This document shows positions 1 to 24,955 of a stretch of 64,000 nucleotides of DNA, piece by piece. Origin of the DNA: an uncultured Actinomycetota bacterium. Its GTDB lineage: Bacteria; Actinomycetota; Actinomycetes; BP-191. A model generated the notes under the pieces. The model searched no databases. It was not told the DNA's origin and worked only from the letters and a program-made list of their open reading frames with translations. How positions within the stretch are numbered: position 1 is the stretch's first letter; each line of letters starts with the position of its first letter. The translations under genes were made by a program, and so were the position numbers. Location: NCBI GenBank assembly GCA_963765815.1, contig CAVXXT010000008.1, forward strand, positions 90,811 to 154,810. Reading direction: 5' to 3'.

Positions 1-1317
<1,317 letters not shown>

Positions 1318-1319
1318 TG

Positions 1320-2141
1320 GTGTCGGGCGACACTGTGCCGACGGACCCAGAGCTGCTCGAGGCGATCGAGCGGTTCTACGACGCCGTGCCCCGGCAGCTG
1401 GCGCGCGCCGAGCAGCTGGGTCCGCTCGTCGTGTTCAGCCCCGGCGACGCGTCGTCGTGGCCCTACTACGTGCGTCCCGCACTCGGCGCGGGTGACATCA
1501 GCGCGGCCGACGTCGAGAGAGCGCGGGCGCGTCGTCGCGAGCTCGGCGTCGCCGAGTCGTTCGAGTGGGTGCACGAGACGACGCCGACGCTGCGCGACGC
1601 CGCGACATCCGCCGGGCTGACGGTGCACGAGCACCCGCTGATGGTGTTGCGCGACCTGGGCGCGACCCCCGCGCCACCGCCGGGCATTCGCGTCGCGACG
1701 CTCGCCAGCGACGACCCGGACCTCGCCCGCGCCACCGCGGTGGCCCACGTCGGCTTCGGCCACGCCGGCACCGCGGTCGGTGCTGCCGGTCCCACCGAGC
1801 GCGACCTGGTCGCCGCGCCGCTCGACGTCACCCCCAACCGCACCGCGCTGGCCCATGGCTGGCTGACCACCGCCGCGGCGTACGACGACGAGGGCCCGCT
1901 CTCGGTCGGCAGCGCGCAGAGCGCGCTCGGCGTGACGGAGATCGTCGGGGTCGCCACGCTGCCGTCGGCACGGCGACGCGGGCTGGCCGCGCTGGTCACC
2001 GCGGCTCTGGTCGACGCGAGCCGGGCGAGCGGCTCGACGACGGTGTTCCTCTCGGCCGACGACGAGGACGTGGCACGGGTCTACGGCCGCCTGGGCTTCG
2101 AGCGCGTGGCGACGGCGTGCATCGCCGAGCCGCCCGAGTAG
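1320..2141 (+). CDS. GNAT-family N-acetyltransferase
   Basis: GTG at 1317/1320 immediately after the thiC stop. Frame of ORF 864..2141 after the thiC overlap. Acetyltransferase-like C-terminal fold (VGVATLPSARRRGLAALVTAAL). The upstream part of that ORF overlaps thiC and is not coding. Confidence 0.6.
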   Translation: MSGDTVPTDPELLEAIERFYDAVPRQLARAEQLGPLVVFSPGDASSWPYYVRPALGAGDISAADVERARARRRELGVAESFEWVHETTPTLRDAATSAGLTVHEHPLMVLRDLGATPAPPPGIRVATLASDDPDLARATAVAHVGFGHAGTAVGAAGPTERDLVAAPLDVTPNRTALAHGWLTTAAAYDDEGPLSVGSAQSALGVTEIVGVATLPSARRRGLAALVTAALVDASRASGSTTVFLSADDEDVARVYGRLGFERVATACIAEPPE

Positions 2142-2200
2142 GCGAACCTCGCCGGGCTCAGCGGGCTCCTTCCATCGATCACCCTCCGAAGGAGCCGCCC

Positions 2201-2965
2201 GTGCGCCGTACCCGACCACTCCTGTCGCTCGCCGTCCTCGGCCTGCTATGGGGCGTCGCTCCGGGGGCGGTCGCCGCCGCGCCGGCCGGCGTCGTCCAGC
2301 CCGGCAGCAAGGTGGAGATCACCGATGTCGCGACGTGCACGGCGGGCTTCGTCTTCGACGGCGTCGGACGTCTCGCGGGGCGCAGGTACGTCGCGCTCGC
2401 CGCGCACTGCGTCGAGGGCAAGCTGGGCGCGGTCGTCACCGACGCCGCGGGAGCGCGCTTCGGCGTGGTCGCGTTCTCGATGTGGCCGTACGAAGGGTTC
2501 GCCGACGACTTCGCGTTCGTGCTGGTCGACCGGGCGGCGTACCCGCGAGTCAGCCCCGCGATGGCCGGCCATCCCGACCTGCCGACCGGCGCGGTCGCCC
2601 CCTCGGACACGTCGATCGGCGACCGGCTGCAGCTGTCCGGCTGGGGCATGGCGACCGAGCAGACCGCGACGACGCGCGAGCAGCGCGTCACGGTCCTCAA
2701 GGACCACACCGACGCGATGTGGTCGGCGTGGGGAGTGGTGAGCCCCGGTGACTCGGGCGGTCCGGTCGCGCACCTGCCGAGCGGCGGCGCCCTGGGATCG
2801 GTCAGCAACCTCTGCGCGCCGCTGCCGGTCAACACCAGCGAGGGATTCGAGCAGGTCGCCGGCTGCCTCGGCTACGGCCCGTCGGTGACGGCGATGATCA
2901 CGCGCGCTGCCGCGCGCGGCTTCACGGTGCGGATCCGTTCGGCGGCGCAGGGGCCGGCGCGCTAG
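2201..2965 (+). CDS. Secreted trypsin-like (S1) serine protease
   Basis: GTG 2201 preceded by GAAGGAGCC SD. Signal peptide (LLSLAVLGLLWGVAPGAVAAAPAG). AAHC His motif and GDSGGP Ser motif. Confidence 0.8.
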   Translation: MRRTRPLLSLAVLGLLWGVAPGAVAAAPAGVVQPGSKVEITDVATCTAGFVFDGVGRLAGRRYVALAAHCVEGKLGAVVTDAAGARFGVVAFSMWPYEGFADDFAFVLVDRAAYPRVSPAMAGHPDLPTGAVAPSDTSIGDRLQLSGWGMATEQTATTREQRVTVLKDHTDAMWSAWGVVSPGDSGGPVAHLPSGGALGSVSNLCAPLPVNTSEGFEQVAGCLGYGPSVTAMITRAAARGFTVRIRSAAQGPAR

Positions 2966-3174
2966 CGGGGACTGACCACGCCCGCGCGTGCCTCGTACCC
3001 AGCCACGTCGACGGCGCGGGGTCCGGCCTGGCGCTTCATCAGGATGCCGAGCCACTTCTTGCCGAACGACTCGGCGACCATGGTGCCGCTCACGGCCTCC
3101 CAGTCCTCCCGGCCGAGCTCCAAGAGGGCAGCGGCGTCACCGGCTTCGACCTCGACCCACTGGTACTCCCACAT
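2962..3174 (-). CDS. DUF4177-like small protein
   Basis: MWEYQWVEVEAG... about 70 aa. Start chosen at the MWEY methionine by resemblance to DUF4177 family starts. An upstream in-frame Met is also possible. Confidence 0.45.
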   Translation of the reverse strand: MWEYQWVEVEAGDAAALLELGREDWEAVSGTMVAESFGKKWLGILMKRQAGPRAVDVAGYEARAGVVSPR

Positions 3175-3316
3175 GGCTGCCCTCTTCATCTGATGAGAGA
3201 CGAACGATGAACCCACAAGTGCAGTGCCCGGAAGTGCCTGCGCCGCAATCAGTCCGAAAGGATGGTTTCCCCTAGCCGGAGGACCGGCGACAAAGCGGTC
3301 GAAACCGGACGGGGCA

Positions 3317-3664
3317 TCAGGCGAGCGGTCGCTCGGCCCAGACCTCGTCCGGAGCGAGTCCGGCCGCGTGGAGGTCGTCGTGGACTCCCGCGACGGCGGT
3401 GTGCGCGTCCACGGACACGGTGACGAAGCGCGCCACGACGAGCCACGTGCCGTCGTCCTCGCGGCGCTCGACCGTGACGGTGTCGTGCGGCTCGGCGGCT
3501 GACGACAGCCGCGCGACGACCTGCTCGACGGCGTCCGACTCGGTGTCGGCGGTCTCCCGGAATCGGGCGAGGATCGGGTACGTCGGCAGCGCTACGTCGA
3601 GTGCGAGGTCGTCGTCGGCATCGAGATCTGGGTCGAGGGCGGTGTCATCGCCGGTCGTCGTCAT
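3317..3664 (-). CDS. Hypothetical acidic protein
   Basis: ORF 3317..3721. Start placed at MTTTGDD. GC3-biased codon usage. No recognisable domain. Confidence 0.4.
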   Translation of the reverse strand: MTTTGDDTALDPDLDADDDLALDVALPTYPILARFRETADTESDAVEQVVARLSSAAEPHDTVTVERREDDGTWLVVARFVTVSVDAHTAVAGVHDDLHAAGLAPDEVWAERPLA

Positions 3665-3693
3665 GCGGGCGTCGTACCCACGCCGGACTCCGG

Positions 3694-4320
3694 TCACCCC
3701 GGATCGACGACGCGGATCCACACGTCGCGGAACGGCACGCGCCGCAGGACGTCGAGCCGGGGGTCGGGCACGTCGAGCAGTCGTGGCGTGCGCAGGGCGG
3801 CCAGCGGTGCGAGCCGCACATCCCCGAGCACGGTGTCCACGCAGCCGCGGTCACCGCCGGCGACGACGGCGTCGAGTCCGCGCGCGTGGGGCAGCAGGAC
3901 TGTCGCTGCGACGTCGGCGGCCGCGGCGAGCGCCGCGCTGGACTGGTTGTCGCGTCGTCGCGCGAACCGCTGCTGTGACCAGCCGCCGGCAGCCGAGCGT
4001 CCGTGCACCTGCCGCGACCCCACCTTCGAGACCTCGAGCCGGTCGCCGGCGAAGACGCCGACCGCGTAGCCGCCGAGCCGCACGAGAAGAACGCCGACAC
4101 GACGCTCCCGCAGCGCGTGCTCGACCACGTCGCCGTCGAGCGGCGGGAACGGCACCTCGACCTCGCAGATCGCCCCGTCCGCGGCGGTGCGCCGGACGAC
4201 GAGCGGCCCGGCCTCCTCGACCACGGCGCCGTGCCGCTCCTCGAAGCCGGCGAGCCAGCGCTCGAGCCGAGCCGGCGGCACCGTCACCCAGCGCCCGCCT
4301 CCGGCGGCCGGCTTGGCCAC
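3694..4320 (-). CDS. Vms1/ANKZF1-like (actinobacterial VLRF1-type) eRF1-fold peptidyl-tRNA hydrolase
   Basis: GGWSQQRFARRRDNQ motif resembling the GGQ-like catalytic loop of VLRF1/eRF1-fold proteins. GTG start at 4320 (VAKPAAGGGRW) chosen because the longer ORF overlaps ogt. Confidence 0.55.
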   Translation of the reverse strand: MAKPAAGGGRWVTVPPARLERWLAGFEERHGAVVEEAGPLVVRRTAADGAICEVEVPFPPLDGDVVEHALRERRVGVLLVRLGGYAVGVFAGDRLEVSKVGSRQVHGRSAAGGWSQQRFARRRDNQSSAALAAAADVAATVLLPHARGLDAVVAGGDRGCVDTVLGDVRLAPLAALRTPRLLDVPDPRLDVLRRVPFRDVWIRVVDPG

Positions 4321-4325
4321 GCCGG

Positions 4326-4976
4326 TCAGCCGCGCTCGTCGTCGACGACCAGCGGCATGGCCTCGAGGTCGAGCAGCAGCTGCTTGGCCGGCAGCCCGCC
4401 GGCGTAGCCGCCGAGCCCGCCGCCGGAGCGCAGGACGCGATGGCAGGGGACGACGACGCACAGCGGGTTGCCGCCGAGCGCGTTGCCGGTCGCGCGGCTC
4501 GCCTTCGGGTTCCCCGCCGCCGCGGCCACGTCGGCGTACGTCGAGGTGCGACCGAACGGGATGCCGGCGGTGTGGGTGAGCACCCGGCGCGCGAACGGCC
4601 CCGTCACCAGCCGCCAGTCCAGCGGGATCTCGAAGTCGTGCCGGCTGCCCGCGAAGTACTCGTCGAGCTCGCGGCGCGCGCGGTCGAGCCGCCGGGGCAG
4701 CTCCATCACGCGCGGTGACACGCGGCGGCTCAGCTCCTCCGCCGCGACGTCCGCCGCGTCGAACGACACCCGGACGACGCCGACGTCGGTCGCCGCGACG
4801 ACGAGGCGGCCGAAGGGCGCGTCGACGACGGCGTACGCGACGTCGATCAGGTCCGCGGCGTCCGCGGCATCGACGAGCTGCTGCGACAGCGCGGTCGGCA
4901 CCGACTCGGTCGTCGCCGCATCGGCCAGGCCGAGGTCGTCGGCGTCGTCGGTCACGGTGCTTGCGTGGTGAGACAT
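4326..4976 (-). CDS. ogt: Methylated-DNA--protein-cysteine methyltransferase (Ogt/MGMT)
   Basis: PCHRV active-site motif and C-terminal HTH (GNPKASRATGNALGGNPLCVVVPCHRVL). ATG at 4976 (MSHHAST). Confidence 0.85.
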   Translation of the reverse strand: MSHHASTVTDDADDLGLADAATTESVPTALSQQLVDAADAADLIDVAYAVVDAPFGRLVVAATDVGVVRVSFDAADVAAEELSRRVSPRVMELPRRLDRARRELDEYFAGSRHDFEIPLDWRLVTGPFARRVLTHTAGIPFGRTSTYADVAAAAGNPKASRATGNALGGNPLCVVVPCHRVLRSGGGLGGYAGGLPAKQLLLDLEAMPLVVDDERG

Positions 4977-5446
4977 GTCGACCTCAGCTTCGTGAGCGCT
5001 TCGTGGACGTTGCGTCGGGCGGCCGCGGGCGTCGTGCCCATGGCGGTCGCGATGTCGGCGTAGGCGAGGTCGCCGACGAACCGGTGAGCGAGGGCGGTGC
5101 GCTGCTTCGGCGGCAGCGCGCGCACCTGCGCCCAGAGTCCGTCGTCGTGCACCGGTGTCGACCTCCCGGCCGTGTCGGGCAGCGTGTCGGTCGGGGCGGG
5201 TCGTCGTGCACGGGACCGGTGCTCGTCGGTGGCCTTGCTCGCCGCGATGGTGAGCACCCATGACCGCAGGTTCGACGTGTCGCGCAACGTCGGGTAGGTC
5301 CGCAGCGCGGCGAGCCAGGTCTCCTGGAAGACGTCGTCGGCGTCGGCCCGGCCGACCAGGCTGACGACGAAGCGCCACACCCGGTCGCGGTGCTCGTCGT
5401 AGAGAGCCTGGAACGGCGGCAGGGTCACACCGGTAGAACGGGCCAC
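4952..5446 (-). CDS. ECF (sigma-70 family) RNA polymerase sigma factor
   Basis: 164 aa. Region 2 (LYDEHRDRVWRFVVSLVG...DVFQETWLAA) and region 4 (ALPPKQRTALAHRFVGDLAYADIATAMG). GTG start 5446. 3' end overlaps the ogt start by 25 nt. The rest of 4952..6820 is artefact. Confidence 0.85.
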   Translation of the reverse strand: MARSTGVTLPPFQALYDEHRDRVWRFVVSLVGRADADDVFQETWLAALRTYPTLRDTSNLRSWVLTIAASKATDEHRSRARRPAPTDTLPDTAGRSTPVHDDGLWAQVRALPPKQRTALAHRFVGDLAYADIATAMGTTPAAARRNVHEALTKLRSTCLTTQAP

Positions 5447-5479
5447 CCCCACATTCTGTGAGGTCCTAGTCTTCGCGGC

Positions 5480-5905
5480 GTGACCAGAGCAGAGCGGTTC
5501 CTCACGTACGGCGTCGCGGGGTGGGTGTTCGAGGTGCTGTTCACCGGCGCCAAGGGTCCTGTCCGGGACAAGAACTGGCGGCTGGAGAGCCACACCTACC
5601 TGTGGATGCTGCCGGTCTACGGCAGCGCCGCCGCGCTGTTCGAGCCGTCGCACGACCGGCTGCGCGACAAGCCGTGGTGGCTGCGCGGATCGGCGTACGC
5701 CGCGGGCATCTACGGCGTCGAGGCGGCGAGCGGCGCGGCGATCAAGCGGCTGACCGGCGAGGTGCCCTGGGACTACGCCCGTCCCCGTCGCGGCGACGTG
5801 GTGCCGATGCACTGGAAGGGGCTGGTGCGCCCGGCGTACGCGCCGGTGTGGTTCGTGGTCGGTCTCGGCATGGAGCGGCTGCACGACCGCCTGGTCAGTC
5901 GCTGA
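5480..5905 (+). CDS. Small polytopic membrane protein (divergent from ECF sigma)
   Basis: 141 aa, GTG 5480, hydrophobic segments. Function unknown. Confidence 0.5.
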   Translation: MTRAERFLTYGVAGWVFEVLFTGAKGPVRDKNWRLESHTYLWMLPVYGSAAALFEPSHDRLRDKPWWLRGSAYAAGIYGVEAASGAAIKRLTGEVPWDYARPRRGDVVPMHWKGLVRPAYAPVWFVVGLGMERLHDRLVSR

Positions 5906-5947
5906 ATCCGCTCGCGCCGCCGCGGCCGGCACCGGGAGACTGACCCG

Positions 5948-6568
5948 ATGGACGTGGGGCTGGCCTGGCGCGGGGCGGTATTCGGCGTGGCGATCGCCGC
6001 GCCGGTCGGTCCGATCGCAGTTCTGCTCATCCGCCGAACGCTCACCCGCGGCCGCGCCGTCGGCTTCGCCAGCGGACTCGGCGCGGCGACCGCCGACCTG
6101 ACCTACGGGCTGCTCGTCGCGCTCGGCCTCACCGCGGTCACCGAGCGGCTGATGTCCGCCGAGCGGGGCCTGCAGGCCGTCGGCGGGATCGTGCTCCTCG
6201 CGCTCGGCATAAGGACGCTTCGCGCGGCGCCCGCGGCCGTCGACGCCGCCGACACCTCGCGCCGCAGCCTCGCTGCGGCCTACGCGTCGACGTACGCACT
6301 GACGCTCACCAACCCCGCGACGATCGTGCTCTTCCTGGCCGTGTTCGCCAGCGTCGGCGTGGTGACGACGGCCGGCTCCGGTGGGGACGCGCTCACGATC
6401 GCGGCCGGCGTCGCGCTGGGCTCCGCGGCCTGGCAGCTCTCGCTCTGCGCGGCGGTGTCGCTGCTGCGCGGCCGGCTGACCGACGCGCGGATGCGCTGGG
6501 TCAACGTCGCCTCCGGCCTCGTCATCGCCGGCTTCGGCGCCGCGGCGCTCGCGTCCGCCGCGGCCTGA
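5948..6568 (+). CDS. LysE/RhtB-family amino-acid exporter
   Basis: 206 aa, six hydrophobic helices, typical LysE N-terminus (GLAWRGAVFGVAIAAPVGPIAVLLIRRTL). Confidence 0.75.
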   Translation: MDVGLAWRGAVFGVAIAAPVGPIAVLLIRRTLTRGRAVGFASGLGAATADLTYGLLVALGLTAVTERLMSAERGLQAVGGIVLLALGIRTLRAAPAAVDAADTSRRSLAAAYASTYALTLTNPATIVLFLAVFASVGVVTTAGSGGDALTIAAGVALGSAAWQLSLCAAVSLLRGRLTDARMRWVNVASGLVIAGFGAAALASAAA

Positions 6569-6572
6569 CCGG

Positions 6573-7484
6573 TCAGCCGGCCGGTAGGGCGAGCAGCCGC
6601 GCGGCGTTGTCGTGGCAGACGGCGCGCAGCCAGTCCTCGCCGAGGTCGAGCCGCTCGAGCGCGCGCAGCTGCTCGACGTACGGGTAGGGGATGTTGGGGA
6701 AGTCGCTGCCGAAGACGACCTTCTCGCGCAGGTCGGCGAGGCGCGGCAGCAGGTCCTTCGGGTACGGCGCGAACCGCTCGGTGAACTCCGTGAACGCCAT
6801 CGTCGTGTCCAGGTGCACATGCCGGTACGACTCGGCCATCGCGACGAAGTCGGCGTACTCCGGAGTGCCCATGTGCGCGATCAGCGCGACCAGGTCCGGG
6901 TGGCGACGGAGCACCTCGCCGATCGGACCGGGTCCGGTGTGACCTCCCGGCAGCGGGCCGCTGCCGGTGTGCAGCACGATCGGCACGCCGGCGTCGGCGA
7001 GGGTGCCCCACACCTGGTCGAGCAGCGGGTCACGCGGGTCGTAGCCGCCGACCTGCACGTGGGCCTTGAACAGCCGCGCACCCGACGCGAGTGCGTGGTC
7101 GACGTACGCCGCCGCGTCGGGCTCGGGGAAGAACGTCGCCGTGTGCACGCAGTCGGGGGTGCTCGCGGCGAACTCCGCCGCCCAGCCGTTGAGCCACGCG
7201 GCCATCCCGGGCTTGTGCGGGTAGACCAGGCTCGGGAAGGCGCGGACGCCGAAGCCGCGCAGCATCGCGAGCCTGGTCTCCGCGTCGACCCGGTAGCGGA
7301 TCGGCCAGCCGGCCAGGTCGCCCTCGCGCACGGCGTCGAAGTAGGCCCAGACCTTGGCCATGACGTTGTCGGGCATGAAGTGCACGTGGATGTCGATCAG
7401 CCCAGGCAGCCCGAGCGCGGTCCAGAAGGCGCGCACGTCGGCCGTCTCCGCCGCGGCGGTCGCAGGGTCGGGGAGTCGCTGCAC
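6573..7484 (-). CDS. Amidohydrolase-2 family metal-dependent hydrolase (TIM barrel)
   Basis: GLIDIHVHF metal-binding start and conserved HxH...H...D pattern. Start placed at GTG 7484 (VQRLPDP) so the gene does not overlap the divergent ACAD. GTG 7508 is also possible. Confidence 0.7.
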   Translation of the reverse strand: MQRLPDPATAAAETADVRAFWTALGLPGLIDIHVHFMPDNVMAKVWAYFDAVREGDLAGWPIRYRVDAETRLAMLRGFGVRAFPSLVYPHKPGMAAWLNGWAAEFAASTPDCVHTATFFPEPDAAAYVDHALASGARLFKAHVQVGGYDPRDPLLDQVWGTLADAGVPIVLHTGSGPLPGGHTGPGPIGEVLRRHPDLVALIAHMGTPEYADFVAMAESYRHVHLDTTMAFTEFTERFAPYPKDLLPRLADLREKVVFGSDFPNIPYPYVEQLRALERLDLGEDWLRAVCHDNAARLLALPAG

Positions 7485-7554
7485 GCGGGGATTGTGCCGT
7501 ACAGTCACCGAACCGCATTCGGTTTGACTGCGTCCCACGAGCAGGGAGTCCGGC

Positions 7555-8727
7555 GTGTCCGTGATCAGCATCCCCGAGGAGTTCACGGCGCTCACCGCGT
7601 CGATCCGCGACTTCATCGCCCGCGAGGTGATGCCGCTCGAGGACACCTACGCGCAGGAGCTGCAGAACACCGGGCACATCGCCGACGAGGTCGAGCTGCG
7701 GCGGCAGCTGCGCAAGAAGTCCGTCGCCAACGGCTTCTACACGCTGTTCATGCCGGAAGAGGTCGGCGGCGGCGGCGTGGGCTACCTCGGCATGGCGCTC
7801 GCCTACGAGGCCGTGGCGCAGAGCGGGTCCTACCTCGCGAGCGGCGGCGGCGTGCTGCCCAACGTCGAGGGCCCGACACCGGTGCTCCTCGACTGCAACG
7901 ACGAGCAGCGCGAGCGCTACCTGCTGCCGACGATGCGGGCCGAGCGCGAGACCGCGTTCGCGCTGACCGAGCCGGAGGCCGGGTCGGACGCGACGAAGAT
8001 CCGCACCCGCGCCGAGCGCAAGGGCGACCGCTTCATCATCAACGGGCGCAAGCACTTCATCACCCACGGCGCCTACGCCGACTACGTCCTGCTCTTCGCG
8101 GTCACCGACGCCGAGAAGGGCGCGCAGGGCGGCATCACCTGCTTCCTCGTCGACACCGACACCCCCGGCTTCGCCGTGAGCCGCAAGCAGCTGACGATGT
8201 ACGACGACCACCAGGCCGAGCTGGTCTTCGACAACCTGGAGGTCGGCGAGGAGCAGATCCTCGGTCGCGAGGGCTACGGCTTCTACTCGGCGATGCGCTG
8301 GATCAACGGCGGCCGCATCCAGATCGCGGCCAACGGCGTCGGCATCGCCCAGCACCTCCTCGACAAGATGCTCGACTACGCCAAGACGCGCGAGGCGTTC
8401 GGCAAGCCGATCGGCAAGAACCAGTACGTCCAGGGACACATCGTCGACTCGCTCTGCGAGCTCGAGGGTGCGCGCTACATCGCCTATGCCGCAGCCGATG
8501 CCATCGACAACGGAGCCGACGGCCGGCTCGAGGCGGCGAAGGCGAAGTACGTGTCGAGCGAGATGGTCGGCCGGGTCGCCGATCGGGCGATCCAGGTCTA
8601 CGGCGGCAACGGCTACATGACCGAGATGGGGATCGAGCGCTACGCCCGCGCCGTCCGCGCGATGCGCCTCTACGAGGGCACCAGCGAGATCCTCAAGACC
8701 AACATCGCCAAGGGCCTGGGGCTCTAG
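7555..8727 (+). CDS. Acyl-CoA dehydrogenase
   Basis: 390 aa. GTG 7555 with GCAGGGAG SD. ACAD middle and C-terminal domains (FALTEPEAGSDA, ...YEGTSEI). Confidence 0.9.
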   Translation: MSVISIPEEFTALTASIRDFIAREVMPLEDTYAQELQNTGHIADEVELRRQLRKKSVANGFYTLFMPEEVGGGGVGYLGMALAYEAVAQSGSYLASGGGVLPNVEGPTPVLLDCNDEQRERYLLPTMRAERETAFALTEPEAGSDATKIRTRAERKGDRFIINGRKHFITHGAYADYVLLFAVTDAEKGAQGGITCFLVDTDTPGFAVSRKQLTMYDDHQAELVFDNLEVGEEQILGREGYGFYSAMRWINGGRIQIAANGVGIAQHLLDKMLDYAKTREAFGKPIGKNQYVQGHIVDSLCELEGARYIAYAAADAIDNGADGRLEAAKAKYVSSEMVGRVADRAIQVYGGNGYMTEMGIERYARAVRAMRLYEGTSEILKTNIAKGLGL

Positions 8728-8729
8728 CG

Positions 8730-9146
8730 TCAGGCCGGGGCGCCGCGCTGCTGCGGGACGCCGGCCACGACGAGGGTCACCGGGCGTGCGCAGGTGAGGG
8801 TCGCGCGCCGGGCGGTCCGGCGCACCTCGACCGTGCGGCACAGCGTGCGGGCCAGCGCGATCTCGGCGGGGTGGACGTCGGAGTGCTGCTCAGAGCCGCG
8901 GACCTCGAGGCGCACCTCGCCGTCCCGCAGGTTGGCGTGCACGTCGATCTCCTCGCCGCGGCCGTGCACGACGACCGACGAGCAGAGCTCGTTGACGACG
9001 ACCACCAGGTCGTCGATGTCGTCGGCGGAGACGCGCTGCTCGGTGAGCCACTGCTCGAACAGCCGGCGGAGCAGCCAGAGCGCGTCGGGCGTGATCGCGC
9101 AGCGGTAGGACAGCAGGGTCTCGTCGCGGAGGTCGGGTTCGGACAT
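8730..9146 (-). CDS. Anti-sigma regulatory factor-like ATP-binding protein (HATPase_c, RsbW-like)
   Basis: 138 aa. GHKL-type ATPase fragment (DDIDDLVVVVNELCSSVVVHG). Convergent with ACAD. Confidence 0.6.
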   Translation of the reverse strand: MSEPDLRDETLLSYRCAITPDALWLLRRLFEQWLTEQRVSADDIDDLVVVVNELCSSVVVHGRGEEIDVHANLRDGEVRLEVRGSEQHSDVHPAEIALARTLCRTVEVRRTARRATLTCARPVTLVVAGVPQQRGAPA

Positions 9147-9394
9147 GCCTCTGTGTACTCCCCGTCACGGGGTCGGCCGATCGGCTCCGTGATGATTCAT
9201 CCCACCGGCGGACGACGAACCCGGACAAGCCTGGCGGACTGCGCTCGCTAGGCTTCCCCGGCGTACCCCGCCCGTCACTCCCTGCAGCCGAGGAGCCCGT
9301 CATCGACGTCCCCGTCGTCGCCCCGCGCCAGCCCTGCCCGTGCGGCTCGGGCCGTCGCTACAAGGCGTGTCACGGCTCGAGCCGCGCCGACCGG

Positions 9395-10204
9395 ATGATC
9401 GCGGTCCGGCCGTTCGAGGGCCGGGTGGACGAGACCGAGTGGGTCGCGCTGCGCGAGGTCGTCCCGGCGGCCACCGCGCCGCTCGCGCTCCGCGACCCGG
9501 CTTACGCCGGCCGCAGCGTGACGCTCTCCACGGTGCTGCCGATGGCGTGGCCGGCGATGGTCCGCGGCGACGGCTCGGCGTACGTCGGCCTGCAGACGCC
9601 CGGCCGCTCTGGCGACGTGTCGCGCGACATCGGCCAGGCGATCGTCGCGGCGCTCGCCGCCGAGCCCGGCGCGGCGATCCCGCAGCTGCCGCGCGCCGAC
9701 GACGCGCCGCGGGTGCAGGACCTGCTCACCGACGCGCCGCTCGACGTCACCGTGCACGACGGGTTCGACTACTGGGTCGAGGGTGTGCCTGACCCTGACG
9801 GCGAGGTCGCGGCGTCGATGGAGCGAGCCAACTCCGCGGTCGTGCCGACCGAGCGGCTGTCGTCGGTCTCCTCGGCGTACTGGTGCCGCATGCGCGAGCG
9901 GAGCCACCTCCGCTGGGCGCTGCCCGACGACGAGGACCCGCTGCTCGACGCGATGGCTCGACTGGCCGGCGCCAAGGCGCTCGGCCTGGGGGAGGGCACG
10001 AAGTACGTCGGCTCGTTCCGCGCGCACGGGCTGCTGGTGCCGGTGTGGGACCTGCCCGTCGACGCCCCGGCGACGGACTGGGAGCAGCCGGCCGCCGCGC
10101 TGCGCACCCGGCTCGACGAGGCGCTCGCCGAGCCGCGGGCGCTCACCGACGAGGAGCGACGGGCGCGGTCCGGGCTGCTCAGCCGCCAGCTCACCCTCCG
10201 CTGA
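9395..10204 (+). CDS. DUF5926-like conserved actinobacterial protein (first canonical start; SEC-C motif lies in-frame upstream, see findings)
   Basis: 269 aa from ATG 9395. Upstream in-frame codons 9332-9380 encode PCPCGSGRRYKACHG (SEC-C zinc-finger signature) with no in-frame ATG/GTG/TTG. Confidence 0.6.
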   Translation: MIAVRPFEGRVDETEWVALREVVPAATAPLALRDPAYAGRSVTLSTVLPMAWPAMVRGDGSAYVGLQTPGRSGDVSRDIGQAIVAALAAEPGAAIPQLPRADDAPRVQDLLTDAPLDVTVHDGFDYWVEGVPDPDGEVAASMERANSAVVPTERLSSVSSAYWCRMRERSHLRWALPDDEDPLLDAMARLAGAKALGLGEGTKYVGSFRAHGLLVPVWDLPVDAPATDWEQPAAALRTRLDEALAEPRALTDEERRARSGLLSRQLTLR

Positions 10205-10336
10205 ACGCGGCGAGTGTGAAGGGGTGAGGCATTTGTCCCCCACCAGCCACTTGCGGTGTCCGAATCGTCCGTGTTGCTTGCCCACGCAAGCGCAGATAGC
10301 GTCGACGCTGCTCGGGCGTCATCGCATCCCCCGTCG

Positions 10337-11504
10337 GTGACGCCCGAGCTTCCAGCATGGGACGTCGTGGTCGTCGGCGCGGGACCGGCCGGCGCCGCCG
10401 CCGCCCGTGAGGCCGCCACCTTCGGCGCCCGGGTGCTCCTCCTCGACCGAGCCGCACCGCCCCGCTACAAGTGCTGCGGCGGAGGGCTGATCGGCCTCTC
10501 CCGCGCCCACGTCGGCATCGACGTCGAGCCGCTCGTCCGCGACTCGGCGTACCGGATGACCTTCACGAAGGACGGCCGCCAGCGCTACACCCGGCGCGCG
10601 CCGCGCGGCCGCGCGGTCTTCTCGATGGTCATGCGCGCCGACCTCGACAGCGCACTCGTCGACGCGGCGGTCGCGGCCGGCGCGCAGCTGCGCACCGGCG
10701 CCACGGTGACCGGGCTCCGGGAGACGGCTGACGCCGTCGTGCTGTCGTTCGCCGGCGGCGAGCCGGACGTCGTCGCGGGCGTCGTGATCGGTGCCGACGG
10801 CACCGGCGGGCGGACCGGCGGGTACGTCGGCGTCGACCTCGAGCAGGTCGACGTCGGGCTGGAAGGCGAGTTCCCGACGCCGCGCGACCTGGCGGCGTAC
10901 TGGTCCGGTCGGGTGCTCATCGACTGGGGGCCGGTGCCGGGGTCGTACGGCTGGGTGTTCCCGAAGGGTGACCTGCTCACCGTCGGCGTCATCGGCGCGC
11001 GCGACGACGGCGCGCGGATGCGCGACTACTACCGTGACTTCGTCGCGCGCCTCGGGCTCGGCGACGTGCCGGCGTCGACGTTCAGCGGTCACCTCACCCG
11101 GGTGCGCCGGCCGGACTCGCCGCTGCGTCGCGGGCCGCGTCCTCGTCGCCGGCGACGCGGCCGGGCTGCTCGAGCCGTGGACGCGCGAAGGCATCTCGTT
11201 CGCGCTGCGGTCCGGCCGCCTCGCCGGGCGGGCGGCGGCGGCGGCGAGGACCGGCGGTGTGGCCGCGCTGGCGGCGTACGAGGAGGCGGTGGAGCGCGAG
11301 CTCACTCCGGAGATGGCTGCTGGCCGCGTCTTCCTGCGCGCGTTCGGCCGCACCCGGCAGGTGTTCCACGGCTTCCTCGCGGTGGTGCCCGGCGGCTGGC
11401 GGCTCTTCGCGCGACTGGTCGCCGGCGAGACGACGCTGGCCCGCCAGCTGCAGAAGCGCCCCGTCCGCCTCGCCCTGCGCATCCTCGCCGGGACGAAGGT
11501 CTAA
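10337..11504 (+). pseudogene. Geranylgeranyl reductase-family FAD-dependent oxidoreductase, frameshifted
   Basis: N-terminal half in frame 2 (VVVVGAGPAGAAAAREAA...FSGHLTRVRRPDSPLRR). C-terminal half in frame 0 (GRVLVAGDAAGLLEPWTREGISFALRSG...). Removing one G from the GGG run at 11132-11134 restores PLRRGRVLVAGDAAG. Start GTG 10337 is tentative; ATG/GTG 10256 is also possible. Confidence 0.7.
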
Positions 11505-12700
11505 GCGGGGTCGCGGAGGACGGGGCAGCTCATGCAGCGCGGGCCACCGCGGCCGCTGCCGAGCTCACTGCCCGCGATGCGCACGACCTCGATGCCCGAC
11601 TCCTCGAGCCGCGCGTTGGTCTCGGTGTTGCGCTCGTAGGCGACGCAGAGCCGAGGCGCGATCGCGAGGGTGTTGTTGCCGTCGTCCCACTGCTCGCGCT
11701 CCGCGGTGACCGGGTCGAGTCCGGTGTCGATGACGCGCAGCGTGTCGATGCGCATCGCCTTCGCCGCCGCGACGAGGAACGGCTCGCGCGGTCCGACGAC
11801 GAGACCGCCGTCGCCGTCGCTGGTGACCGGTACGGCGACGAGGGAGTCGGCGACCGCGGGGTACATGACGACCGCGTCGACGTCGACCATCGTGCAGACG
11901 GTGTCGAGGTGCATGGTGGCCCGCTCCTGCGCGATCGGCACCGCGAGCACGGTGCTCACCGCTCCGCTCGCGAACGCGCGCAGTGCGAGAGCCTCCACGC
12001 CGGCCGGCGTGGTGCGCTGGCCGACGCCGACCGCGACGACGCCGGGCGCAAGGGCGAGGACGTCACCGCCCTCGAGCCATGCCTCGTTGCGACTGCCGCC
12101 GTACAGCAGGGGCGTGCCCGCGAAGCGCGGGTGGTGCCGGTAGATCGCGCCGGTCAGCGACGTCTCGCGCTGCCGCGCCCGCATCGACGGCCGGGTGACT
12201 GCGACCTGCTCGCCGATCCACACCGACGAGTCGCGGGTGAACAGCAGGTTGGGCAGCGGCGGGATGACGAAGTCGTGCCGGCCGAGCAGGCCGAAGACGA
12301 CTCCCTCACCACGGGGCAGCTCCTCGTGCGCCAGCCCGGAGATCAGCACGTCGGCGAGATCCTCCGACGACAGCCCGAGCAGGTGCTTGGCCAGCTGCGC
12401 GGCGAGGGCGGGGCCGATCTCCCAGGGCGGCAGCGCGCCGAGCACGACCTCGTGGCGCGCAGCCGGGTCGTCGAGCGTCTCCACCAGCAGGTCGCGGAGG
12501 TAGAGCACCTCGACCCCCCGTGTGCGCAGCGCGTCGGCGAACCCGTCGTGCTCCTCCTGCGCGCGGCCGACCCAGGGGATGCCGTCGAAGAGCAGGTCGG
12601 CGTTGTTGCGGGGGGTGAGCCGCTTGAGCTCGTTGCCCGGTCGGTGCAGCAGGACGGTGCGCAGTCGACCGACCTCGGTCGACACCCCCACGGCGCTCAT
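11501..12700 (-). CDS. arcA: Arginine deiminase
   Basis: 399 aa, ADI fold with near-C-terminal catalytic Cys ([13 protein letters not shown]). ATG 12700. Confidence 0.85.
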
Positions 12701-12716
12701 GTCCGCAGGGTATCGG

Positions 12717-13694
12717 TCAGGCCGCTACGCCTTCCGTGCTCGCGACGAGACCGGCCGTTGCGGCGCGAGTCGCGGTGCCCAGGTCCTCGCCGAGGCGGGC
12801 GAAGAACGCCGCGTTGACCCGCGACCGCCACAGCGCACCGCGCAGCACGCGCGACGCCAGCTCCGGCTGCGCCTCGGCGTACGGGACGATCGCGTTGTCC
12901 ATCCAGTCCTTGCCGTGCCGCGGGTCGACCTCGGCGTGCTCGGCGTAGAACGGGATCGCCGCCAGCGGCGAGTCGGTGCGCTCCAGGCCGGCGAGCACCT
13001 TGCGGCAGCGCGGGCCGGCCTGCAGCTCGATCAGGCCCAGCGCGCCGAGCATCTCCGGCTGCAGCCAGTGGTTGGTCGCGAGCAGGCCGCCGAGTGCGGA
13101 GCGCTCGAGAGACTCGTCCGGCTGCTCGGCGAGCGGGATGCGCGGCATGCCGACGGCGCGCACCAGGTTGTCGTGCAGTGCGGTGTGCACGGCGTCGAGC
13201 GCGCCGTTGCCCATCTCGTCCCAGTAGTTCTGCGCCAGCTCCAGCTTGGGTCGCCCGGACAGCCCGATCTGGCAGGCCGCGACCAGGTCGTCGAAGCCGC
13301 CGTCGGGCCCGCCCTCGAGGGCGAGGAAGTGCACCAGCTCGTCGTACGACGCCTCGCGGGCGACCCACTCGTAGACGCCGGGCAGCCGGTCCTTCGCCGC
13401 CAGCGCCCGCATCGCGGCGACGACGTCGTCGCCCAGCGCGCTCAGCTCGGTCGCGTCGGCGGCGTACAGCTCCTCGAGCCACTCGCTCTCGAGCCGCCAC
13501 TTCAGGTCGGCCAGCACCGGGTGCGCCGCGAGCCGCGCCTGGTCCGGCTGGCGGGCGACATCGCCGAGCAGCAGGTCGTAGAGGTGCAGCAGGGTGAGGA
13601 ACCGGTCACGCCGTCCGGCGGGCGCATCGCCGCGCAACGCGTCGACGTTGCCGGTCTGCAGCGCGAGGCCGAGGCGCTGAGAGAGGAGGTCCAT
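12717..13694 (-). CDS. Iron-containing redox enzyme family protein (heme-oxygenase-like diiron oxidase, HDO)
   Basis: About 325 aa. Helical protein with spaced E/H ligand candidates ([21 protein letters not shown]...). 16 bp upstream of arcA on the same strand. ATG 13694 with GAAGCAGG SD; the track start at 13700 is a TTG. Confidence 0.5.
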
Positions 13695-13795
13695 GCTCAA
13701 CCTGCTTCCCTCAAACTCGCCCGGTCAACCGGCTGACTAGACCCCCCGCGGTGCCCTGCGGGGTCGAGTCAGCCGGTCAAGTAACCTGCCGCCTC

Positions 13796-14695
13796 ATGGG
13801 ACTCATGGACGGCAAGGTCGCGATCGTCACCGGCGCTGGACGTGGCATCGGCCGCGGCGAGGCGATGCTGCTCGCCGCTGAGGGCGCCAGCGTGGTGGTC
13901 AACGAGCTCGATCCTGACGTCGGCCAGTCGGTCGTCGACGAGATCCGCGCGGCCGGCGGCACCGCGGTGCTCGACACCGGCGACTGCTCGGAGATGGCGA
14001 CGGCCGAGCGGCTGGTGCACCACGCGATCGAGGAGTTCGGCACGCTCGACGCGCTGGTCAACAACGCCGGCATCCTGCGCGACCGCACCGTCGTGAAGAT
14101 GACGCCGGAGGAGTGGGACGCCGTCATCACGGTGCACCTGCGCGGCCACTACGCGCCGACGCACGTCGCCTGCGCGTGGTGGAAGGAGCAGGGCAAGCCG
14201 GGTCGCATCGTCTGCACAGCCAGCACCAGCGGGCTGCTCGGCAACTTCGGCCAGACCAACTACGGCGCGGCGAAGGCGGGCATCGCCGCGTTCTCGACGA
14301 TCGTCGCGCAGGAGATGGCGCGGTACGGCGTCACCTGCAACGCCATCGCGCCGGCCGCGCGGACCCGGATGACGGAGTCGGCGTACGGCGAGATCCCCGG
14401 CGGTGAGTCGACCGGCTTCGACTTCTGGCACCCGGACAACGTCGCGCCGATGGTCGTCTTCCTCTGCTCCGACGCGGCCGCGCACATCAGCGGCAAGGTC
14501 TTCGGCGTACAGGGCGACGCGGTCGAGCTCTACCGGCCGTTCACGTCCGTCGCGGTGGTCGACAACGGCGGCGCGACGTGGCAGCCGTCGGTGCTGGCCG
14601 GTCGCGTCGACGAGCTGTTCAGCGAGAGCGGCATCGTCCCGGGCGCCGAGAACATGATGGCCAAGCTCCGCTACACCATGACCGAGCGCTCCTAG
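13796..14695 (+). CDS. SDR-family oxidoreductase
   Basis: Rossmann TGAGRGIG motif, NNAG, and YGAAK catalytic motif. ATG 13796 (MGLMDGK). Confidence 0.85.
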   Translation: MGLMDGKVAIVTGAGRGIGRGEAMLLAAEGASVVVNELDPDVGQSVVDEIRAAGGTAVLDTGDCSEMATAERLVHHAIEEFGTLDALVNNAGILRDRTVVKMTPEEWDAVITVHLRGHYAPTHVACAWWKEQGKPGRIVCTASTSGLLGNFGQTNYGAAKAGIAAFSTIVAQEMARYGVTCNAIAPAARTRMTESAYGEIPGGESTGFDFWHPDNVAPMVVFLCSDAAAHISGKVFGVQGDAVELYRPFTSVAVVDNGGATWQPSVLAGRVDELFSESGIVPGAENMMAKLRYTMTERS

Positions 14696-18637: not shown

Positions 18638-19822
18638 TCATCGGGCGGTCGCCTGGTGGGCCGCCGCCGCGGCCTCGGCGAGCACAGCCTTCACCGGCCG
18701 TCCCGCCGCCGCCGCTGCGGCCGCGACGTCGTCGAACTCGGGCGACGCGTTGACGACCCGCCCGTCGAGACGCGCGACCTTCACCCGCACCGCCGAGCCG
18801 TCGGAGAGCGTCACCGAGATCAGCTCGCGGTCGAGTGCGCGCTTGGTGACCGTGTGCTCGCGTACGCCGATCGTCGACGTCTCCTCGAACAGCACGGATC
18901 GCACCGCACCCAGGTCGACCGGATCGCACATCGCCGACACCGTCACGGCCGGCCGGCCCTTCTTCATGTGCATCGGCGTCAGCCAGGCGTCCACCGCGCC
19001 GGCCGTCAGCAGGGCGGCGATCACGCCCGGCCACAGCCGCGGGTCGAGGTCGTCGACGTTGGCCTCGACGACCACCGCGTCGCTGCCGGTGCTGGGCAGC
19101 GCGGCCGACTCGCCGATCACCAGCCGCAGGACGTTCGGCACCTCGTCGATGTCGCGCGATCCCGCGCCGAGCCCGGTGCACTCGACGGTGAGCGGCGGCA
19201 GGTCGCCCCAGGACGACACCACGCCGGTGAGGATCGCTGCGCCCGTCGGGGTGCACAGCTCGTACGGCACGCCGCCGGAGTAGATCGGTGCGCCCTTCAG
19301 CAGCTCGAGCACGGCTGGCGTCGGCACCGGCAGCATGCCGTGCTCGCTGCGCGTCATGCCCATGCCGGTCGCGACCGGCGATGCCGTGATGCGCTCGAGA
19401 CCCAGGTGGTGCAGCCCGGTCGCCGCGCCGACGATGTCGGCGATCGCGTCGAGGCCGCCGATCTCGTGGAAGTGCACGAGGTCAACGGTGGTGCGATGCA
19501 CCGCGGCCTCGGCGAGCGCGAGCCGCTCGAACACGTCGAGTGCGGTGCTGCGGACGGGGCCGGGGATGTCCGCCGACTCGAGCAGGTCGCGCACGTGGGG
19601 CCAGGTGCGCACGACGGTCGAGCGCTCGACGGCCACGTCGACCTTGGTCGCGCCGAGGCCATGCCGGGTGGTCGGCTGCGCGGTGAGAGTCACCCGCTCG
19701 ATCGGCAGCCCGTCGAGCACCTCCTGCAGATGCGCCAGCGGTACGCCGGCGTCGACGAGGGCGCCGAGCACCATGTCGCCCGACGCGCCGCTGGAGCAGT
19801 GGAACCACCCGATGCGCGTCAC
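18638..19822 (-). CDS. larC: Nickel-pincer cofactor biosynthesis protein LarC (DUF111 nickel insertase)
   Basis: 394 aa from GTG 19822 (VTRIGWFHCSSGASGDM). The remainder of the 867-aa track ORF is read-through artefact. Confidence 0.8.
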   Translation of the reverse strand: MTRIGWFHCSSGASGDMVLGALVDAGVPLAHLQEVLDGLPIERVTLTAQPTTRHGLGATKVDVAVERSTVVRTWPHVRDLLESADIPGPVRSTALDVFERLALAEAAVHRTTVDLVHFHEIGGLDAIADIVGAATGLHHLGLERITASPVATGMGMTRSEHGMLPVPTPAVLELLKGAPIYSGGVPYELCTPTGAAILTGVVSSWGDLPPLTVECTGLGAGSRDIDEVPNVLRLVIGESAALPSTGSDAVVVEANVDDLDPRLWPGVIAALLTAGAVDAWLTPMHMKKGRPAVTVSAMCDPVDLGAVRSVLFEETSTIGVREHTVTKRALDRELISVTLSDGSAVRVKVARLDGRVVNASPEFDDVAAAAAAAGRPVKAVLAEAAAAAHQATAR

Positions 19823-20604
19823 GCCGCCCCCTCCGACGCGGCTGCCCGCCGGGCCACCCGCGCGGCGAAGACGCCGGCACCGAAGCCGTTGTCGATGTTG
19901 CACACCGCGACACCCGGTGCGCACGAGTTGAGCATCGCCAGCAGAGCGGCGAGGCCGCCGTACGACGCGCCGTACCCGACGCTCGTCGGCACCGCGACGA
20001 CCGGCACGCCGACCAGTCCGCCGACGGCTGACGGCAGCGCGCCCTCCATCCCCGCGACGACGACGAGGCAGTCGGCGCGGTCGAGCTGGTGCTGCACGGC
20101 GAGCAGCCGGTGGATGCCGGCGACGCCGACGTCGGTGATGCGCTCGACCCCGGCCCCGAAGGCCCGCGCGACGAACGCCGCCTCCGCCGCGACCGCGCCG
20201 TCCGAGGTGCCGGCGCTCACGACGGCCACCGTCCCCCGCTCCTGCGGGAGCGCCCCGACAGCCGCGCACCGGGCGCTGTCGTCGACCACTGCGTCCGGCC
20301 ACTCGCGACGCACGAGGGCGAGCAACGACGACGATGCGCGAGTCACGAGCGCCGGTCGCCCCGAGCCGCCGTCGCGCAGGGACGCGAGGATCGCGATCGC
20401 CTCGTCGTCGGACTTGCCCTCGCCGTAGACGACCTCGGGATCGCCGGTGCGCAGCGCGCGGTGGTGGTCGACGCGCGCGAACCCCAGGTCGGTGAAACCG
20501 GTGCCGACGAGGGGCAGCGCTGCCAGGGCGCTCACGGCGTCGTCGACCGCCGTGCCACCGGCCGCGACCGCTTCGAGCAGCCGGCGTACCTCGTCGCGGT
20601 CCAC
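19819..20604 (-). CDS. larB: Nickel-pincer cofactor biosynthesis protein LarB (PurE-like carboxylase/hydrolase)
   Basis: 261 aa, PurE-like C-terminal half (VVSAGTSDG...VVVAGMEGALP...VPTSVGYG). GTGA overlap with larC. Confidence 0.75.
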   Translation of the reverse strand: MDRDEVRRLLEAVAAGGTAVDDAVSALAALPLVGTGFTDLGFARVDHHRALRTGDPEVVYGEGKSDDEAIAILASLRDGGSGRPALVTRASSSLLALVRREWPDAVVDDSARCAAVGALPQERGTVAVVSAGTSDGAVAAEAAFVARAFGAGVERITDVGVAGIHRLLAVQHQLDRADCLVVVAGMEGALPSAVGGLVGVPVVAVPTSVGYGASYGGLAALLAMLNSCAPGVAVCNIDNGFGAGVFAARVARRAAASEGAA

Positions 20605-23768: not shown

Positions 23769-24955
23769 GTCATGATCTTGTGCTCAATCCACAGGAAGGG
23801 CGGGCTCAACCGGTTGTTGCAACGGGCCTCTGATGGAGAGGCTTGGTCATGGCTGGTTCTCGGATGTCGGAGCAGGATCGGGTTCGGATCGAGACGTTGT
23901 GGGCGGAGGGTCGGTCGATCCCGCACATCGCCGGGGTGATCGGCCGTCATCGGAGCACCGTCTGGCGAGAGCTGGCGGGACGGAACTCCTACCGTCACGG
24001 GCCGAAGAACCCGCAGGGTCGGCAGCGTGGTGGTGTCTACCGGTGGGGTTACGACGCGACGTGGGCCCAGGACGCGGCGTGGCGGGTGGCTCGTCGACGC
24101 CGCGCTGCGAAGCTCTCGGTCGGCACTGAGCTGCGGGAGCTCGTCGTCGGGATGCTGCGGCAGCGCTGGTCTCCGCAGCAGATCGCGGCCAGTCTTCGTC
24201 GGGACTATCCCGACCAGCCGGAGATGTGGGTGTCGCACGAGACGATCTACCGGGCGATCTACGTGCAGTCACGCGGTGGGCTGCGCGAGGAGCTGACCCG
24301 CCAGGTCGCGCTGCGCTCGGGCCGGGCGAGCCGACGCAAGCAGACCGTGCCCGGGGGCGCAGTGCGCTCGGCGAGAGCGTGGATCACACCAGACCTGCAC
24401 ATCAGCCAGCGGCCGGCCGAAGCGGCCGACCGGGCCGTGCCTGGTCATTGGGAGGGGGATCTGCTGATTGGTGCCGGTGGCCGCTCGGCGATCATCACCC
24501 TGGTCGAGCGCAGCACCCGCTACGTGATGCTCGGCAAGCTCCCCGGCGACCGAGCCAGCGAAGCGGTCATCGGCGTGCTGTCCGACCTGATCGGCCGGCT
24601 TCCGGAGCACCTGCGCCGATCGCTGGCCTGGGACTGCGGCACGGAGCTCGCTCAGCATGCGAAGTTCACGGTCGAATCAGGCTGCCCGGTCTACTTCTGC
24701 GACCCGCACAGCCCCTGGCAGCGCGGCAGCAACGAGAACACCAACGGCCTGCTCCGCCAGTACTTCCCCAAAGGCGAGGCCGACTTCCGCACCATCAGCC
24801 AGGACGAACTCGACGACGTCGCCGCCGGTCTCAACGGTCGACCCCGCATGACCCTTGACTGGAACAATCCAGCCGAGGCACTCAACGCGCTGCTCGTTGC
24901 ATCAGCCGCTTGAGACCGCCGCGTCGTTCCTGTGGATTGAGCACAAGATCATGAC
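23769..24955 (+). mobile_element. IS30-family insertion sequence, apparently intact
   Basis: 27-bp terminal inverted repeats GTCATGATCTTGTGCTCAATCCACAGG at 23769-23795 and its reverse complement at 24929-24955. They flank a single transposase ORF. Confidence 0.85.
23843..24913 (+). CDS. IS30-family transposase (DDE)
   Basis: 356 aa. N-terminal HTH, C-terminal DDE core (HWEGDLLIG...LAWDCGTEL...NENTNGLLRQYFPKG). Confidence 0.85.
   Translation: MVMAGSRMSEQDRVRIETLWAEGRSIPHIAGVIGRHRSTVWRELAGRNSYRHGPKNPQGRQRGGVYRWGYDATWAQDAAWRVARRRRAAKLSVGTELRELVVGMLRQRWSPQQIAASLRRDYPDQPEMWVSHETIYRAIYVQSRGGLREELTRQVALRSGRASRRKQTVPGGAVRSARAWITPDLHISQRPAEAADRAVPGHWEGDLLIGAGGRSAIITLVERSTRYVMLGKLPGDRASEAVIGVLSDLIGRLPEHLRRSLAWDCGTELAQHAKFTVESGCPVYFCDPHSPWQRGSNENTNGLLRQYFPKGEADFRTISQDELDDVAAGLNGRPRMTLDWNNPAEALNALLVASAA

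Follow-up and report, generated by a model that had tools for sequence, protein, structure and literature searches.

A heme-oxygenase-like diiron enzyme gene and an arginine deiminase gene lie side by side in one clade of uncultured Actinomycetota

A 64-kb stretch of DNA from an uncultured actinobacterium, analysed here over its full length and called the window, carries a gene for a heme-oxygenase-like diiron enzyme (HDO) just upstream of arcA, the gene for arginine deiminase (ADI). The locus raises the question of whether the two enzymes work in one pathway. The initial annotation suggested that they do, and that the pair modifies a metabolite derived from arginine or citrulline rather than breaking down arginine for energy. 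The evidence that the HDO and the ADI share a pathway is moderate. Our preferred reading, to which we give a probability of roughly 0.45, is that the HDO gene and arcA are a lineage-specific, co-transcribed pair whose products are not obligately coupled. A pathway that modifies arginine or citrulline is a reasonable hypothesis, but it is not implied by the data: the pair belongs to one clade, arcA sits equally close to a gene for a GDT1 transporter elsewhere, and the active site of the ADI is unchanged.

Both open reading frames (ORFs) are on the minus strand at the positions first assigned to them, and their identities, their coordinates and the 16-nucleotide (nt) gap between them were borne out by the ORF calls, by Pfam and by direct reading of the sequence. 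The HDO gene (12717..13694) encodes a protein of 325 amino acids (aa) that matches PF14518 (Haem_oxygenas_2) with E = 3.9e-30 and 105.4 bits, against a Pfam cut-off of 28.9. It starts with ATG, and an alternative TTG lies 6 nt upstream at 13700. The arcA gene (11501..12700) encodes a canonical ADI of 399 aa (PF02274, E = 5.8e-109, 365 bits). The HDO stop codon, TGA, is at 12717-12719 and the ATG of arcA is at 12700, which leaves a spacer of exactly 16 nt (12701..12716, minus strand). Neither protein had an identical sequence on record in an exact-sequence look-up on contigs. The initial annotation was also right that the partners of the classical pathway are missing: Pfam found no ornithine carbamoyltransferase (arcB), carbamate kinase (arcC) or arginine/ornithine or APC-type antiporter (arcD) in any called gene of the 64 kb, and near the pair amino-acid transport is represented solely by a LysE-type exporter at 5948-6568. 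The same search found no nonribosomal peptide synthetase, polyketide synthase or tailoring set around the pair. A biosynthetic-gene-cluster setting was considered and rejected, as the neighbours are chromosomal housekeeping genes.

The HDO appears to have a full set of metal ligands. The candidates are E160, H170, E223, H253, D257 and H260, three histidines and three carboxylates, spaced as E160-x9-H170, E223 and H253-x3-D257-x2-H260, and this spacing is invariant in an alignment of 16 homologs that are 58-85% identical. In a HMMER alignment the six residues fall on E215, H225, E281, H311, D315 and H318 of SznF, the ligands published for that enzyme (PMC13133933). At every ligand position the residue is kept by 81 or 82 of the 82 orthologs, and 72 positions of the protein are at least 95% conserved across all 82, so the carboxylate and histidine set on which the initial annotation staked its assignment is intact. 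An invariant E127, together with D135 and D136, lies on the helix and turn that precede the first ligand helix. E127 is followed by a GGPDGG turn and resembles the "seventh ligand" motif of SznF and RohS, with a spacing from E127 to E160 of 33 versus 26 in those two enzymes. In such 3His/4carboxylate HDOs an additional Glu of auxiliary helix 2 coordinates Fe1, and E127 may or may not do so. This motif was used by McBride et al. to predict heteroatom oxygenases (PMC7848743). HrmI has a glutamate equivalent to E127, yet is classed as a 3His/3carboxylate enzyme.

Comparisons by sequence and by structure both lead to HrmI. It is the best PDB sequence match of the HDO (E = 4e-18 over residues 105-294), and the two proteins have in common an identical NYWDEMGNG ligand helix, an LA.E motif, an FDD motif and an HxxxDxxH helix, while the sequence match to SznF is marginal (E = 0.018-0.02). 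The AlphaFold model of the HDO is all-helical, with a pLDDT of 80.7 and a pTM of 0.82, and its confidence is low only around residues 130-145 and 158-170, near the first ligand helix. The model predicts an HrmI-type architecture, with an N-terminal helical extension and a seven-helix core. HrmI structures are the top Foldseek matches of this model (TM 0.72, 318 columns, 24% identity, E about 1e-9), followed by SznF, FlcD and RohS, with CADD, BesC and UndA matching weakly; the top 25 PDB structural matches (E <= 0.001) are all HDOs. With HrmI as the best match on both counts and SznF, FlcD and RohS next, the HDO falls within the N-oxygenase-type branch of its superfamily, and both its sequence and its model present it as a credible, intact enzyme of this type. 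Its core resembles that of SznF, and the six ligands align one to one, but the mono-iron cupin domain at the C-terminus of SznF is absent. No cupin domain was found in the 325-aa protein, whose sole Pfam domain is PF14518.

HrmI and BelK are L-lysine N6-oxygenases of hormaomycin and belactosin biosynthesis (PDB 9N1A, 9N1E, 9N1X, 9N2A and 9NH9). They belong to the same Pfam family, PF14518, and have the same architecture as the HDO, and the six ligands of BelK (E205, H215, E269, H299, D303 and H306) are spaced in the same way. Unlike them, the HDO of the window is one conserved ortholog across several classes of Actinomycetota, and at least 569 candidate stretches across species-representative Actinomycetota genomes encode a relative of it. 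Since the HDO is only 24% identical over 318 columns, it is best taken as a homolog, not an ortholog, of HrmI and BelK. The neighbourhood of the HDO gene, in the window and in the related loci alike, showed no iron/2-oxoglutarate cyclopropanase of the HrmJ/BelL type.

The second enzyme of the pair is a canonical ADI with an unaltered active site. It scores 521.8 bits against the NCBIfam model NF002381 "arginine deiminase" (cut-off 414), falls below the cut-off of the equivalog model TIGR01078 (452 vs 489), and aligns end to end with the P. aeruginosa ADI (PaADI) structure 1RXX (E = 6e-90). In this alignment N160, F163, D166, R185 and E224 of PaADI correspond to N151, F154, D157, R176 and E210 of the window protein, and R243, H278, D280, R401 and C406 correspond to R229, H264, D266, R384 and C389, of which C389 is the catalytic cysteine. 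In the P. aeruginosa enzyme the Cys, His and Glu among them are catalytic, and the Asp and Arg residues bind the guanidinium and carboxylate groups. Each of the ten is kept without exception in the 97 relatives compared, 24 of them HDO-linked and 73 unlinked. The window arcA is like the arcA of the classical arcABC(D) pathway in encoding a bona fide ADI with all checked catalytic residues kept, and differs from it in being of the stand-alone actinobacterial type, without arcB, arcC or arcD.

Only three of the 399 positions are diagnostic of the ADIs of the HDO clade against the 73 other relatives: L171P, A172S and E228Q. Their codons are at about 12188-12183 (residues 171 and 172) and 12019-12017 (residue 228) on the minus strand, and the three substitutions flank the carboxylate-binding R176 and R229 (R185 and R243 in PaADI). 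In-clade arcA genes that no longer adjoin the HDO gene carry them too, which makes them inseparable from phylogeny; two loci (L008 and L030) keep E228. Adaptation of the ADI to a new substrate was rejected as an explanation, as the substitutions track phylogeny.

The conservation of the pair was surveyed in 80 genome loci whose HDO orthologs show 48-69% identity, and in L081, the closest relative (86%). The HDO gene is followed directly by arcA on the same strand in L081 and in about 22 of the 80 loci. The gaps run from 9 to 121 nt with a median of about 24 across 20 genome loci, L081 and the window, and the 16-nt gap of the window is identical in L081. Overall the pair is conserved in about 25 loci, all of them Mycobacteriales/Frankiales-type metagenome-assembled genomes (MAGs); the proteins of the window, which has a G+C content of 68-75%, likewise match MAGs labelled Mycobacteriales or Frankiaceae. 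No third pathway gene, such as a transporter, a ligase or a reductase, is conserved with the pair among the paired loci.

The initial annotation had expected the two genes to be conserved as a pair and to co-occur across genomes. This held for the about 25 loci, with varied flanks, in one Mycobacteriales/Frankiales clade, but not for six other loci (L001-L003, L082, L084 and L085), where arcA is elsewhere, and not for Acidimicrobiia or the rest of the Actinomycetota. In L001-L003 and L082, which form the subclade nearest to that of the window, a fatty-acid-synthesis block lies between the HDO gene and arcA, and arcA stands alone behind a gene for a PucR-like regulator; it is also alone in L084 and L085. 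A 259-aa protein that takes the place of arcA downstream of the HDO gene in L001 and L082 was considered and set aside, since it looks like a lineage-restricted membrane protein and has no homologs in the other loci. About 46 of the 68 informative loci have an HDO ortholog without arcA within 6 kb, and this is the case for nearly all HDO loci of Acidimicrobiia, Iamiaceae, Nitriliruptoraceae, Actinoplanes and Solirubrobacteraceae. Only L064 departs from this, with an arcA of 45% identity on the other strand, about 3 kb from the HDO gene. Separately, a protein of about 2040-2080 aa with RHS-repeat/YD-shell features is encoded next to arcA, on different sides, in L084 (1710-7826) and L085 (10397-16639).

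A reciprocal test was made from the side of arcA, with the window's arcA as query and 80 metagenome loci fetched. The HDO gene is upstream of arcA in all three informative loci at 73% arcA identity or more, and in none of the 60 at 60-70%. The usual context in these 60 loci is LarB, LarC, GDT1 and arcA in one direction, then genes for DUF5926, an anti-sigma-like HATPase and GDPD in the other; an alternative downstream context has a cNMP-binding protein and a cyclase. The string from LarB through arcA to DUF5926 is seen in loci L086-L165, for example L104, L108, L121, L123 and L136, and the same flanking string with the HDO gene added is seen in the window, L004, L013 and L026. The window counterparts are LarB and LarC at 18638-20604, DUF5926 at 9395-10204 and the HATPase at 8730-9146. 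Neither LarA nor LarE was identified next to LarB and LarC in the window. The simplest history is a single insertion of the HDO gene next to the start of arcA, with arcA at its ancestral position, in the ancestor of one clade, and the about 25 paired loci probably descend from this single event.

The reciprocal test bears on two of the arguments for a special function. The first is the missing arcBC genes, which the initial annotation read as a sign of one. In 77 related loci none of the genes that recur beside arcA is arcB, arcC or arcD, and stand-alone arcA without arcBC is the normal state in related lineages. As it is the norm in 60 of 60 informative loci at 60-70% arcA identity, the missing arcBC genes are no sign of a special function. 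The second is the tight spacing. In the lineages without the HDO gene the gaps between GDT1 and arcA are -1 to 178 nt, as tight as the gaps between the HDO gene and arcA. GDT1 is a cation transporter without an evident connection to arginine and is yet equally tight, so spacing upstream of arcA is weak evidence for a pathway.

In the reading that we prefer, the history would begin with insertion of the HDO gene directly upstream of a stand-alone arcA in the ancestor of one Mycobacteriales/Frankiales clade. With its active site unaltered, the ADI should carry out the standard reaction, L-arginine + H2O -> L-citrulline + NH3. The HDO would bind two Fe(II) and activate O2 to a peroxo-diiron(III) species, and it would oxygenate a side-chain nitrogen of a free amino-acid-like substrate, as HrmI, SznF and RohS do. 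Because no conserved position differs between arcA-linked and unlinked HDOs, the reaction would be the same in all lineages, with no strict dependence on an adjacent ADI. The link in the arcA clade would then be one of co-expression, which might tie the HDO to the availability of arginine or nitrogen.

Several points weigh against a pair that is not obligately coupled. At least 8 clusters (PAS, SDR and others) are represented immediately upstream of the HDO gene and at least 10 (DUF5926, GDPD and others) immediately downstream of arcA, and the junction between the HDO gene and arcA is more stable than either flanking junction. Proximity also survives three kinds of rearrangement: the two genes are divergent in L005, they are 4 kb apart with an SDR gene and an acyl-CoA oxidase-like gene between them in L008 and L030, and one small ORF separates them in L086 and L101. 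Such persistence is what selection for co-regulation or co-function would produce. On the other side, these five loci, like L001-L003 and L082, show that the junction can break while both genes are kept, which favours the preferred reading. Co-transcription itself, though probable, is deduced from spacing and orientation only. The nearest characterised relatives of the HDO act on basic amino acids, HrmI on lysine and SznF on an arginine derivative. By analogy, MboA and MboE offer a precedent for an HDO that acts after an arginine-to-citrulline deiminase (PMC13185094), and the other recurrent partner of the HDO family, an N-methyltransferase discussed below, recalls the arginine logic of SznE and SznF.

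Much of this would also be expected of a dedicated two-enzyme pathway, in which the ADI and the HDO act in sequence on one arginine-derived skeleton, and we consider such a pathway possible but rather doubtful. In one order, citrulline made by the ADI would be oxygenated or desaturated by the HDO; in the other, the HDO would N-hydroxylate the guanidino group of arginine and the ADI would hydrolyse the product. Either order would yield a modified amino acid or a reactive nitrogen species, not the simple release of ammonia. The pair has been kept at 9-121 nt in about 25 loci while both flanks varied, and its proximity has been kept after rearrangement in the five loci named above, all of which speaks for such a pathway; with a single evolutionary origin, though, the many descendants count as one event, and the GDT1 control shows arcA to be equally tight to another gene elsewhere. 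The place of the HDO in the N-oxygenase branch, with HrmI, SznF, FlcD and RohS as top structural matches, fits the proposed chemistry, as do the motifs in common with HrmI, which binds a free basic amino acid (PMC13108848). Against this stand about 46 of 68 informative loci, whose HDO orthologs have the same positions conserved but lack an arcA within 6 kb. Three clade-diagnostic ADI substitutions do flank both carboxylate-binding arginines, but they track phylogeny, and the catalytic and substrate-binding residues are unchanged. Nor does any third pathway gene travel with the pair.

The closest precedent for the two-enzyme pathway is in mangotoxin biosynthesis, where MboA, an HDO acetylenase, acts on a citrulline residue made by the deiminase MboE. 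This is the only described case that we found of an HDO and an arginine-to-citrulline deiminase encoded together and acting on the same skeleton (PMC13185094). The likeness has limits: the amidinotransferase-like MboE has a tripeptide as its substrate, whereas the window ADI is of the canonical free-arginine type, and MboA performs a C-C desaturation, whereas the window HDO falls in with the N-oxygenases. Further products of the mbo operon are ATP-grasp amino-acid ligases and a dedicated redox partner, and no gene for either is adjacent to the pair in the about 25 paired loci. Two ATP-grasp genes do exist in the window, 18-22 kb from the pair, but they are not conserved neighbours.

It is less likely still that the true partner of the HDO is a PrmC/HemK-like N-methyltransferase and that its adjacency to arcA is an accident of the insertion site. 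Outside the arcA clade the commonest neighbour of the HDO gene encodes a methyltransferase that is about 210 aa long and carries a DPPY motif. Among NCBIfam models it comes closest to PrmC, PrmB and HemK without reaching the cut-off of any of them. A bona fide PrmC was rejected on a score of 79-95 bits against a cut-off of 199, on the length of about 210 aa and on the lack of the N-terminal part of the model. The methyltransferase gene adjoins the HDO gene in 16 loci (L041, L043, L045, L049, L050, L054, L058, L059, L062, L065, L066, L068, L069, L072, L073 and L079) and lies within 4 kb in 7 more (L011, L032, L044, L053, L061, L067 and L078). The adjacent cases come in four arrangements: downstream on the same strand in 6, upstream and divergent in 5, upstream on the same strand in 4, and downstream and convergent in 1. 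Methyltransferase-linked loci occur in Acidimicrobiia, in Iamiaceae and in some Frankiales/Mycobacteriales MAGs. Compared with the linkage to arcA, this one reaches across more of the phylogeny and holds up better under rearrangement, and, being kept through rearrangement, it is stronger evidence of a functional link than the adjacency of arcA. None of the papers that we consulted describes it.

If the methyltransferase is the partner, the target that it shares with the HDO would be an amide, ureido or guanidino nitrogen, in either a small molecule or a protein. SznE and SznF, an arginine-guanidino methyltransferase and an HDO N-oxygenase (PMC11705231), show that the two kinds of enzyme are a working combination, and the pairing of the HDO family with an N-methyltransferase in other lineages resembles theirs. 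However, no copy of the methyltransferase gene was found in the window or in any arcA-linked locus. No alignment position separates the arcA-linked HDOs (27) from the methyltransferase-linked ones (19), and the reaction is presumably the same in both settings. A methyltransferase partner is also compatible with an arginine-related substrate, and by analogy the SznE/SznF and MboA/MboE precedents together keep a substrate related to arginine or citrulline plausible.

A self-sacrificing or cofactor-forming enzyme of the CADD/p-aminobenzoate-synthase type, unrelated to arginine, is hardly credible, since its fit to a conserved, single-ortholog distribution outside biosynthetic gene clusters and the presence of CADD among the structural matches are set against a weak CADD match (Foldseek E about 1e-3, TMq 0.45-0.49, about 205-226 columns, with HrmI at TMq 0.72), the absence of CADD from the PDB sequence matches even at E <= 10, and the HrmI-type N-terminal extension of the HDO.

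Upstream of the pair is the divergent intergenic region between the HDO gene and an SDR gene (plus strand, 13751/about 13800-14695), and this region (13695..13800) presumably holds the promoter of the HDO-arcA unit. Within it are an 18-nt inverted repeat (13728-13745 and 13760-13777, 94% complementary) and two copies of TTGACCGG, which may be an operator or a promoter pair. In L081 the repeat and the TTGACCGG copies are conserved only in part, and the repeat, which shows no compensatory changes there, is absent from more distant loci. A scan for promoter-like and terminator-like sites found 0 of either in 11200-14000, in a method that is insensitive for high-GC actinobacteria. An Rfam scan of 11000-14500 found no family above threshold, the best being COG3860 RNA (E = 0.09, 21 bits against a gathering threshold of 42.5). 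A riboswitch or leader RNA upstream of the HDO gene was rejected on this sub-threshold match and on the lack of compensatory changes in the repeat.

On the other side of the pair, a gene of the geranylgeranyl-reductase family of FAD oxidoreductases (10337-11486, plus strand) converges on arcA, and its stop overlaps the arcA stop by 4 nt. It is frameshifted between 11126 and 11132, running in frame +2 to 11125 and in frame +3 from 11133, and the L081 ortholog is one intact 398-aa protein; the frameshift is either an assembly error or a pseudogene. Farther along the window, an IS30-like transposase gene (HTH_38 and rve integrase core, 23864-24913, plus strand) is flanked by genes for a HAD hydrolase and a bacterial proteasome activator. 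A cluster at 29061-35716 contains two esterase-family genes (29061-30883), a gene for a 321-aa protein without a family match (30958-31923) and, on opposite strands, the two ATP-grasp ligase-like genes (31960-33408, minus; 34499-35716, plus). The called 646-aa ORF at 57047-58987 (minus strand) has an implausible N-terminal half, rich in Arg, Gly and Asp, and matches DUF4185 in its C-terminal part only; its true start is probably far downstream of the called one.

A bolder proposal, which we regard as a long shot, is that the HDO serves primary metabolism and that the atom it oxygenates is the guanidino nitrogen in free L-arginine or the ureido nitrogen in citrulline. If it were true, the HDO would perform a heme-independent step, like that of nitric oxide synthase or SznF, that gives N-hydroxy-arginine and ultimately nitric oxide, nitrite or hydroxylamine. 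That nitrogen centre would be supplied or processed by the ADI in one clade and by the PrmC-like N-methyltransferase elsewhere, and soil Actinomycetota would have a widespread reactive-nitrogen pathway that lies outside biosynthetic gene clusters.

The HDO is a new, uncharacterised member of a known superfamily beside a known enzyme. Reactions are known for only about a dozen HDOs, nearly all of them from natural-product gene clusters (PMC13108848). If the adjacency to arcA is only positional, the locus is a caution that a shared pathway should not be read from tight spacing to arcA and many descendants of one insertion event alone. The family is nonetheless an attractive target for functional work, as it is conserved, lies outside biosynthetic clusters and has two partners in nitrogen chemistry, the ADI and the PrmC-like N-methyltransferase. 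Once found, its reaction would give the HDO superfamily a conserved role outside secondary metabolism, and it could reveal an unrecognised step of arginine or nitrogen metabolism in abundant uncultured soil actinobacteria.

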